From assembly GCA_963765495.1 (NCBI GenBank), contig CAVXWP010000006.1, positions 1 through 64,000 of the forward strand: 64,000 nucleotides of DNA. The letters run 5' to 3'. Made by a program: the position numbers and the translations under genes. Below, in pieces: positions 42,379-43,450 of the stretch. Within the stretch, counting starts at the first letter, position 1. Each line of letters begins with the position of its first letter. Source of the DNA: Blastocatellia bacterium. GTDB taxonomy: Bacteria; Acidobacteriota; Blastocatellia; UBA7656. The notes beneath the pieces were generated by a model. That model did not search any database, was not told the origin of the DNA, and saw only the letters and a list, made by a program, of their open reading frames with translations.

Positions 42379-42408
42379 TTGACACTTTCGCGTAAGGTCT
42401 GGTAACTT
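42379..42408 (+). promoter_or_regulatory. tRNA promoter
   Basis: TTGACA-N18-TAACTT with extended TG. Confidence 0.55.
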
Positions 42409-42468
42409 ACCCATTCCTTCGAAAGAAGGATTTTTCCTGAGTAGCTCAATGGCAGAGCATCCGGCTGT

Positions 42469-43361
42469 AAAGGATGAATGATCTTTGCAGCTTCCACAGG
42501 TGACTGTGGTTGAAAAACTGGGTGAATTCAAGGAAGCCTACGCTGGCTACGGTCAGTAGGGTAACCCTGAGCGAAGCCTGCTAAAAGGTAGTGCGCTTTT
42601 GAGTGCGCTGTCGGCAGGAACGTGCAGAGACTGAGATTGTGTTGCAATGAAAGTTCTACCATTGGTAGGAACGGAACTCAGATCTGCTATTGTTGGAATG
42701 GTGGCTGGAGACGCCGGGATCAGGAAGCAAAAAGGCTGCCGATCTGTGAGTCTCCGGATTACTCATGCTGAGAAACAGAGAGAGTATCTTGAATACAAAA
42801 GAGATATCCTCCAAAATCTGTTTAAGGGATGGGAAATTCCTATCAGACCAATCAATAATAGCGGATATCCAGGAGTCAGACTGGAAACTCGCAATCATCC
42901 CAAACTAAGAGCCATTTATAAATGGTTTTATAGCGAGGGAAAAAAGCGGTTTTCGAGGCAAATTCTCAACTATCTAACACCCATCGGGGTTGCTATTTGG
43001 TATATGGATGATGGTTCTCTCTCTTACAAGAAAAGAGAGGGAAAGGTTCACGGAAGAGAGGTCCATCTCAATACTTACTGCTCATTGGAGGAGGCTGAAG
43101 TTATCCAAGCCTACTTCAAGGAAGTATGGGATGTCTCTTGGACGGTGATTCCAAATAAAGGGCTTTTTCGGCTTAGGATGGGATCGAACGGGGCTAAAAA
43201 GTTCTTTATGATCATCAGTCCGTACATAATTCCGATGATGAGGTACAAAATAGATTTGGGGTACGTAAAGCAACACGATCAAAGCGCCCGGCAACTTTTT
43301 TCAATGCCAGAAGAGAGTTGATGAGATAGTCCGCCCCTATGTGAAAACATAGGATCAAGCG
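42469..43361 (+). ncRNA. group I self-splicing intron, 893 nt (IC3-like)
   Basis: exon ends in U and intron ends in G; P1 GCTGT/GCAGC with a U-G pair; P GAATTCAAGGAA, Q AACCCTGAGC, R GCAGAGACT, S GAGATAGTCC. Confidence 0.92.
42647..43321 (+). CDS. intron-encoded two-motif LAGLIDADG homing endonuclease
   Basis: AIVGMVAGDAG and GVAIWYMDDGS; located between R and S (P8 loop). Confidence 0.9.
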   Translation: MKVLPLVGTELRSAIVGMVAGDAGIRKQKGCRSVSLRITHAEKQREYLEYKRDILQNLFKGWEIPIRPINNSGYPGVRLETRNHPKLRAIYKWFYSEGKKRFSRQILNYLTPIGVAIWYMDDGSLSYKKREGKVHGREVHLNTYCSLEEAEVIQAYFKEVWDVSWTVIPNKGLFRLRMGSNGAKKFFMIISPYIIPMMRYKIDLGYVKQHDQSARQLFSMPEES

Positions 43362-43415
43362 TAACCGGAGGGTTGTAGGTTCGAGTCCTACCTCAGGAGC
43401 CATTTTTTAGGAGCA

Positions 43416-43450
43416 GAGGGTCATCATTTCGATGGCCCTTTTGCTTTCTT
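43416..43450 (+). terminator. terminator after tRNA-Asn
   Basis: AGGGTCATC/GATGGCCCT stem plus T-rich tail. Confidence 0.7.

Follow-up and report, generated by a model that had tools for sequence, protein, structure and literature searches.

The split tRNA-Asn gene

The DNA analysed here is a stretch of 64,000 nucleotides (nt) from a Blastocatellia bacterium (assembly GCA_963765495.1, contig CAVXWP010000006.1, positions 1 to 64,000 of the forward strand; referred to as the window). It contains a tRNA-Asn(GUU) gene (42435-43402), which is interrupted after position 35 by an intron of 893 nt with the features of group I, and this intron carries an open reading frame (ORF) for a putative homing endonuclease of the LAGLIDADG type. 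The gene was found with aragorn in intron mode; default aragorn and Rfam at the gathering threshold detected only a tRNA-Pro in the window. The locus is composed as follows:

42435..42468, plus strand: 5' exon of tRNA-Asn(GUU), comprising acceptor, D arm, 5' half of the anticodon arm, G34 and U35 (aragorn -i)
42469..43361, plus strand: group I intron, 893 nt, from the first A after exon U-1 to omega-G at 43361 (Rfam RF00028)
42647..43321, plus strand: gene for a LAGLIDADG_2 (I-SceI family) homing endonuclease, 224 amino acids (aa), ATG start, TGA stop
43362..43402, plus strand: 3' exon of tRNA-Asn, comprising U36, A37, A38, 3' half of the anticodon stem, variable loop, T arm, acceptor, discriminator G and the encoded CCA

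The 5' exon ends in ...CCGGCUGU and is followed by AAAGG at the start of the intron, which in turn ends in ...AAGCG before the 3' exon start UAACCGGA. Joined, the exon ends CCGGCUGU and UAACCGGA therefore give a mature anticodon loop CU-GUU-AA. A first search of 40 relatives with the tRNA-Asn 3' exon returned 29 loci from other genomes. In 24 of these the gene is intron-less and the exons abut exactly at the predicted junction, which is the splice site TCCGGCTGT^TAACCGGA given in a preliminary description of this DNA; the other five have a homologous intron there. The same 34 nt of the 5' exon directly abut the 3' exon in the intron-less relatives, and the exons of the window are identical to theirs.

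The assembly comprises 7.30 Mb in 17 contigs and is 97.9% complete. It has no PsaA/PsaB; for this reason, and in view of the synteny of the window with a Blastocatellia genome of its own GTDB family (G174), a cyanobacterial origin, to which the intron in tRNA-Leu(UAA) had first pointed, was rejected in favour of an acidobacterial host of class Blastocatellia. Standard aragorn called 49 tRNAs in this genome, but no tRNA-Asn, tRNA-Leu(UAA) or tRNA-Arg(UCU) was among them, and the pattern of the tRNA-Asn 3' exon occurs only once. The interrupted gene is the sole detected source of tRNA-Asn, barring a copy in an assembly gap, and splicing seems obligatory because no other tRNA-Asn gene was found. 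Two further tRNA-Asn calls of aragorn -i (C1:1269176 and C7:385941) were dismissed by eye, being without tRNA-like ends.

Fold and covariation of the intron RNA

The Rfam model RF00028 (Intron_gpI) matched positions 42459-43353 with 35.2 bits (E 6.4e-7), and a whole-genome search gave an RF00028 match at 24.9 bits. The gathering score of 50 was not reached. The helices of the intron were assigned as follows:

42463-42473 / 42482-42492, plus strand: P1, 11 bp (minimum free energy (MFE) fold; helix 1 of RNAalifold, paired in 14/14 homologues)
42494..42509, plus strand: P2 hairpin, CCACAG/CUGUGG with a GUGA (GNRA) loop (alignment fold and MFE fold)
42518..42524, plus strand: P3 5' strand CUGGGUG, pairing with 43285-43291 across ~760 nt (pairing recovered by the MFE fold)
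42528-42533/42565-42570, plus strand: P4, part of the P4-P5-P6 domain (42528..42618)
42537-42541/42556-42560, plus strand: P5, P4-P5-P6 domain
42577-42582/42613-42618, plus strand: P6, with the P6a hairpin
42627..42632, plus strand: P7 5' strand ('R' element), consisting of G, a bulged A and GACU, pairing with 43328-43332 to give the P3-P7 pseudoknot
42635..42645, plus strand: 5' strand of the ORF-closing stem, 11 bp, ending one base before the ATG (MFE fold)
43270..43280, plus strand: 3' strand of the ORF-closing stem, within the final 17 codons of the reading frame
43285..43291, plus strand: P3 3' strand CGCCCGG, inside the ORF tail
43292..43320, plus strand: P8 hairpin, 11 bp, CAACUUUUUUC / GAAGAGAGUUG, the last two bases overlapped by the stop codon of the ORF
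43328..43332, plus strand: P7 3' strand AGUCC, part of the conserved GAUGAGAUAGUCC ('S' element)
43336..43353, plus strand: P9 hairpin, CCUAUGU/ACAUAGG with a GAAA loop, compensatory changes in 6/7 pairs

Covariation was assessed with RNAalifold on 14 ORF-less homologous introns (241-269 nt), P7 being added by hand as a pseudoknot. The helices P1, P2, the long-range P3, P4, P5, P5a, P6, a hairpin between P7 and P3', P8 and P9 were obtained. Pairing was found in 98.5% of 918 alignment cells, compared to 28-41% in controls with slid partners, and compensatory changes were present in 22 of 66 pairs versus 12.0 ± 1.8 after shuffling, with none of 500 shuffles reaching 22. P3 shows CG>UA (three sequences) and GC>AU (two sequences) changes, and compensatory changes are present in P4, P5a and P6 as well. 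The unconstrained MFE fold of 911 nt of the window recovers P1, P2, P3, P4-P6, the ORF-closing stem, P8 and P9 (z = -7.5). The internal guide GCAGCU is located at 42487-42492, where G42487 pairs with U42468, the terminal nucleotide of the 5' exon, to form the U.G pair of P1 at the 5' splice site. This U.G pair is found in 14/14 homologues, and all 30 listed homologous introns follow an exon U and end in G (omega-G). The P1 U.G pair, the omega-G and the covarying P3-P8 core assign the intron to group I, and on these features self-splicing is predicted.

Position and product of the intron ORF

In all 14 ORF-less relatives, a hairpin of ~40 nt follows the P7 5' strand (GAGACUA) and precedes the P3 3' strand (GCGCCCGG). 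The window instead has an 11-bp stem at this place, with the ORF looped out of it, and in 8/8 LAGLIDADG introns matched by script (10 loci as input) the closing stem is conserved with altered base pairs. The ORF occupies a P7.1-type peripheral element, a label that refers to position only, and not the P8 loop. The preliminary description, which had located the ORF in P8, is corrected in this respect by the ORF-less homologues and by the MFE fold, both of which put the ORF between P7 and P3' and leave only its 3' tail overlapping P3' and P8. The last 17 codons traverse the 3' strand of the closing stem, P3' and P8, and the stop codon (43319-43321) falls where P8 meets the 'S' element (J8/7-P7'), immediately upstream of the conserved GAUGAGAUAGUCC, where it had been described. 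The C-terminal tails of orthologues vary in frame and length, as expected if this region is constrained as RNA and not as protein.

The intact 224-aa ORF with two LAGLIDADG motifs in a bacterial tRNA group I intron, as first reported, was recovered by the Pfam assignment, the match to I-SceI and the split tRNA-Asn. Pfam LAGLIDADG_2 (PF03161) covers residues 12-186 (E 5.3e-34, 118 bits versus a cutoff of 25), and I-SceI chains in the PDB match residues 12-202 (E 6e-11). The two motifs, GMVAGDAGI and AIWYMDDGS, span approximately residues 14-25 and 113-124. Their D22 and D122 correspond in the alignment to residues 44 and 145 of I-SceI, which we take to be the catalytic pair. Among 36 homologues, G21, D121, D122 and G123 are kept in all and D22 in 34. 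An AlphaFold2 model built with the 36 homologues (pLDDT 91.9, pTM 0.86) matches the pseudo-dimeric alpha-beta-beta-alpha-beta-beta-alpha order of secondary structure. The top Foldseek matches were I-WcaI (6x1j) and I-SceI (1r7m) (E ~1e-15, TM 0.74-0.76, with 0.75 for I-SceI, 21-24% identity); the bI3 maturase and the bifunctional I-AniI were also among the matches. The protein is, by sequence and model, a member of the I-SceI family (LAGLIDADG_2) that retains both catalytic Asp residues, and it is predicted to cleave DNA. Enzymes of this family cut both DNA strands at a specific, long target of about 18 bp, which leaves 3' overhangs of 4 nt.

Distribution and forms of the intron

A wider search with 153 nt of the intron core as query covered 400 Blastocatellia genomes and that of the window, and the core was found in 48 of these 401 genomes. 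Among the 29 loci retrieved from other genomes, the same site is interrupted in 28, all of them tRNA-Asn(gtt) genes, and a contig end truncates the 29th. The forms of the intron were counted among 31 homologous introns examined. Eighteen are ORF-less, two of which keep a 3' remnant of an HNH gene. An HNH ORF of 93-132 aa is located in the P1 loop of eight introns (the one tested matched Pfam HNH with E 6.5e-5, above the cutoff), and the remaining five contain the LAGLIDADG ORF, namely those of the window, L065 (=G174), L085 (=G189), L095 (=G246) and the Pyrinomonadaceae metagenome-assembled genome L037. Orthologues of the LAGLIDADG protein (at least 73% identity) are encoded in four of the 401 genomes, which belong to three families of GTDB. 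Public protein data hold ~34 clusters at 62-91% identity, mostly metagenomic and two of them named Pyrinomonadaceae. All seven metagenome loci with at least 76% identity to the homing endonuclease gene (HEG) product lie in tRNA-Asn. More distant relatives (29-35% identity) were found in 23S rRNA, in the same class in L003 and L138, or in unidentified group I introns.

The intron is present sporadically at one fixed site with empty alleles in relatives, which is the pattern of a mobile intron. Different states occur even within a genus: in g7, the LAGLIDADG intron (G174) is found beside an intron-less gene (G006), and g57 includes introns with a LAGLIDADG ORF (G189), with an HNH ORF (G166) and without ORF (G263).

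HNH ORFs in the P1 loop (93-132 aa, CxxC...HH...CANCH) were seen in L012, L021, L064, L069, L070, L071, L074, L077, L078 and L086, where the reading frame continues through the guide sequence and P2. In L072 (=L033) and L088 (=L027), just the last ~15 codons of the HNH ORF are left. Both types of gene were seen together in L116 (983-2245, MWWI01000819.1), where a tRNA-Asn intron of 1189 nt contains an intact 115-aa HNH ORF in the P1 loop and an intact 221-aa LAGLIDADG ORF in the P7.1 loop. No RNA run was listed as containing the locus of the window. Related intron contigs of the LAGLIDADG and the HNH type are also present among contigs of three sequencing runs. Contigs in two DNA runs join 42468 to 43362 exactly, but their exon letters differ; they probably stem from intron-less genes of other organisms and were not used as evidence.

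Four relatives of the LAGLIDADG protein at 36-39% identity are encoded inside tRNA-Leu(UAA) introns of 850-911 nt (L121 134-1068; L122 553-1548; L124, L125 1288-2283), which are inserted at the classical site between U34 and A35. tRNA-Asn is therefore not the only tRNA whose bacterial-type introns carry LAGLIDADG ORFs. In genus g12, two regions (G137:C90:18055-20453 and G193:C161:6939-9645) show three tandem LAGLIDADG_2 matches per ~2.5 kb, with in-frame stops in three of three matches in G137 and in one of three in G193. They probably mark 23S rRNA genes with several introns and decaying endonuclease genes.

Selection and mobility

The ratio of nonsynonymous to synonymous substitutions (dN/dS) of the HEG was 0.07-0.16 in all six pairwise comparisons of four orthologues, values that indicate purifying selection on the LAGLIDADG ORF. 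The genes upstream in the window are syntenic with the 3.2-Mb contig L036 (=G174, from the same GTDB family as the window) at 73-75% amino acid identity. Between these two loci the HEG has a dS of 0.43, compared to a pS of 0.76 (saturated) and a dS of 1.45 for two flanking host genes. The intron had been called actively homing in the preliminary description. Purifying selection, the kept Asp pair, the patchiness within genera and the lower dS speak for this indirectly; the activity itself stays a prediction from sequence.

Origin and function of the intron and its ORF

The locus is likely to represent a mobile group I intron with a homing endonuclease of the I-SceI type in the sole detected tRNA-Asn(GUU) gene of the genome; we infer that the intron splices itself and is still mobile, that its ORF is translated and that the enzyme cleaves DNA at the target proposed below. 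The tRNA-Asn gene would be transcribed as a precursor of ~970 nt, the intron RNA of which would fold into P1-P9 and splice itself out between U35 and U36, restoring the tRNA. In P1, the exon end GGCUGU would be paired with the guide GCAGCU, with U.G at the splice site, and omega-G 43361 would set the 3' splice site. The 224-aa monomeric endonuclease would be translated from the loop extruded by the 11-bp stem between P7 and P3' and would cut the intron-less tRNA-Asn gene at or near the junction ...CCGGCUGU|UAACCGG.... Double-strand-break repair would then copy the intron together with its gene into the cut allele (homing). The near-palindromic nature of the target, to which weight had been given before, finds no support as a relevant feature; I-SceI-type enzymes are monomers that act on asymmetric sites.

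Several points weigh against this interpretation. With the assembly at 97.9% completeness, a second, intron-less tRNA-Asn gene could sit in a gap. Rfam scores the intron at 35 bits, less than the gathering score of 50; according to Williams 2020 (bioRxiv 10.1101/2020.01.27.920355), where cutoffs of 18-20 bits were used, none of the Rfam seeds was bacterial. The low score reflects a limit of the model and is not evidence against the fold. One A.C mismatch is present in P4 of the window, and covariation is silent on P7, which is paired in 14/14 homologues but invariant. No Shine-Dalgarno-like sequence was seen upstream of the ATG; with the start codon also abutting a stable stem, translation may be inefficient. 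Purifying selection would equally result from a maturase role. The lower dS of the HEG rests on two flanking genes and could be influenced by a constraint of RNA structure on the ORF. The LAGLIDADG ORF is furthermore found in at least three lineages of the intron core, each of which is closest to introns without ORF from the same host family.

The last point is drawn from the tree of the intron core (244 columns), on which the LAGLIDADG label needs at least three changes. The window is grouped with L065 (family f1) and L085 (family f5) with an SH-aLRT of 99, while L037 groups with the ORF-less L073 and L095 with the ORF-less L091 (SH-aLRT 96), both in family f4. This pattern calls for numerous losses of the ORF or for its transfer from one intron lineage to another. 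Homing into empty sites does not explain such a transfer, since the junction is missing from an occupied site. One way to read these data is to regard the tRNA-Asn intron as an arena in which HNH genes (P1 loop) and LAGLIDADG genes (P7.1 loop) come and go independently and sometimes coexist, the LAGLIDADG enzyme targeting ORF-less introns and not empty tRNA genes. We give this a minor but appreciable chance of being correct. If true, the locus would be a natural and tractable case of the invasion of an existing intron by endonuclease genes, and the I-SceI-like family would include new specificities, among them those of the relatives in tRNA-Leu(UAA) introns.

It is rather improbable that the ORF is an independently mobile element with its recognition site in the ORF-less intron (region of the P7.1 hairpin) which invades resident tRNA-Asn introns, the intron itself then being largely vertical or perhaps moved by the HNH enzyme. 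The changes of the LAGLIDADG label and the groupings of L037 with L073 and L095 with L091 would fit such an invasion, as would the replacement of the ~40-nt hairpin of all 14 ORF-less introns by an ORF with its own closing stem. The double-ORF intron of L116 is as expected if a LAGLIDADG gene entered an intron already bearing an HNH gene. Repeated loss of an ancestral ORF would, however, lead to the same tree pattern, and another route would be the recombination of an incoming intron with a resident one.

A role of the protein mainly as maturase, with homing lost or irrelevant and vertical descent with many ORF losses, appears very unlikely. As no tRNA-Asn gene other than the interrupted one was found, the host should be under strong selection to splice it efficiently; dN/dS is low, and the mismatch in P4 of the window might need help by a protein. 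LAGLIDADG maturases exist, two proteins with such a function (bI3 maturase and the bifunctional I-AniI) are among the fold matches, and a bacterial example in Thermotoga is mentioned in the accessible part of Hausner et al. 2014 (PMC3984707). However, 18 of the 31 homologous introns are ORF-less and each of these is located in an apparently functional tRNA-Asn gene, and the ribozyme is therefore not generally dependent on the LAGLIDADG protein. Pure maturases usually lose the catalytic Asp residues, which are conserved here together with the flanking Gly in 34-36 of 36 homologues. The dS of the HEG below that of flanking genes and the mixture of states within genera also speak against a maturase. 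That the tRNA is a dead pseudogene with a selfish insertion no longer splicing, to which the sub-gathering Rfam score might point, is hardly credible in view of exons identical to those of intron-less relatives, intact helices throughout the ribozyme, the same arrangement conserved at the loci of 28 other genomes and the lack of another tRNA-Asn in the 97.9%-complete genome.

Flanking features and other split tRNA genes

Downstream of the tRNA, one further element was found in a consensus scan alone:

43415..43441, plus strand: terminator-like hairpin with T-run

Upstream, a terminator-like hairpin at 42415-42430 ends a hydrolase gene 5 nt before the tRNA. A perfect TTGACA is present at 42380-42385 with a weak -10 element 18 nt downstream (by eye); the consensus scan called no promoter here.

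Two more tRNA genes of the genome are split. The sole tRNA-Arg(UCU) gene found (C1:1074195-1074867, minus strand; L109 296-968) is interrupted by 597 nt, which contain a 171-aa HNH_3 ORF (Pfam E 1.5e-11). The ~81 nt left outside this ORF do not suffice for a separate ribozyme. At its 3' end the insert resembles J8/7-P7'-P9(GAAA), and no Rfam group I match was obtained for it at E<=10. The insert may be a ribozyme that extensively overlaps its ORF; a pattern search for it in 40 relatives gave only three weak matches. The tRNA-Leu(UAA) gene (C12:68327-68642; L110 228-543) contains an intron of 229 nt at the classical cyanobacterial and plastid site, here in an acidobacterial host, and this intron had no match to Rfam Intron_gpI even at E<=10.

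Comparison with known systems

As far as the available text of Haugen et al. 2007 (PMC1995217) goes, LAGLIDADG genes of bacterial chromosomes are described in introns of large subunit (LSU) rRNA, and the sole endonuclease listed for a tRNA intron is I-Ssp6803I of the PD-(D/E)XK type; the background given in the preliminary description agrees with this. The term 'Asn' is absent from the accessible part of Hausner et al. 2014 (PMC3984707). The bacterial tRNA settings of such introns were raised from 4 to 21 (17 further) by Williams 2020 (bioRxiv 10.1101/2020.01.27.920355), where intron ORFs were not analysed beyond the remark that introns of more than ~400 bp possibly contain genes. No group I intron in tRNA-Asn, no LAGLIDADG gene in a bacterial tRNA intron and no tRNA group I intron of Acidobacteria was described in the literature searched, which did not cover the table of settings in Williams 2020. 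Cyanobacterial 'group I introns' of 22-49 nt (PMC5733544) are too short for ribozymes and were not used.

The locus would extend LAGLIDADG homing endonucleases to bacterial tRNA introns, for which I-Ssp6803I, a PD-(D/E)XK protein, is the only enzyme listed in the part of Haugen et al. 2007 available, and tRNA group I introns to Acidobacteria. Empty sites and ORF-less, HNH, LAGLIDADG and double-ORF introns form a comparative series in one lineage, which is suited to study the cycle of HEG gain and loss as well as the entry of such genes into introns. Several dozen sequences of the I-SceI type at 62-91% identity, presumably with one target, could be useful for work on meganuclease specificity. 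For genome annotation, it should be considered that standard tRNA finders report this genome as being without tRNA-Asn, tRNA-Leu(UAA) and tRNA-Arg(UCU).

Among characterised systems, I-SceI and I-WcaI from the 'omega' intron of yeast mitochondrial LSU rRNA share with the protein described here the LAGLIDADG_2 domain, the monomeric two-motif fold, the aligned Asp pair and the coding position in a group I intron loop. In contrast to these, the gene of the window is found on a bacterial chromosome and in a tRNA host gene, the identity is 21-24%, the target sequence is necessarily different, and the tail of the ORF overlaps P3' and P8. I-Ssp6803I of the Synechocystis tRNA-fMet intron is, going by the portions of the descriptions at hand, likewise encoded by a HEG in a group I intron inserted in a bacterial tRNA gene's anticodon loop. 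Its target is, according to work ascribed to Bonocora and Shub in 2001, reportedly the anticodon stem-loop DNA of the intron-less gene. The enzyme is a PD-(D/E)XK protein of about 150 aa, whereas a LAGLIDADG protein of 224 aa is encoded here, and tRNA, position in the loop and phylum differ.

The classical bacterial tRNA introns (Leu UAA, fMet, Arg CCU, Ile CAU) are likewise small ribozymes that sit in the anticodon loop, follow U-1 and end in omega-G. The capping of P2 and P9 by GNRA loops, a trait of IC3 introns, is shared by the tRNA-Asn intron, which differs from the classical ones in the tRNA, in the insertion between loop positions 4 and 5 and in the extra hairpin between P7 and P3'. The LAGLIDADG introns of bacterial 23S rRNA (Thermotoga, Simkania, Coxiella and cyanobacteria, according to the available part of PMC1995217) are also chromosomal group I introns in a structural RNA gene; unlike them, the intron of the window has a tRNA as host and encodes a protein of the I-SceI subfamily. 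Its mechanism would be that of a textbook mobile group I intron, while the setting appears to be new, combining tRNA-Asn, an acidobacterial host, an I-SceI-type enzyme, an alternative HNH gene and a double-ORF form.

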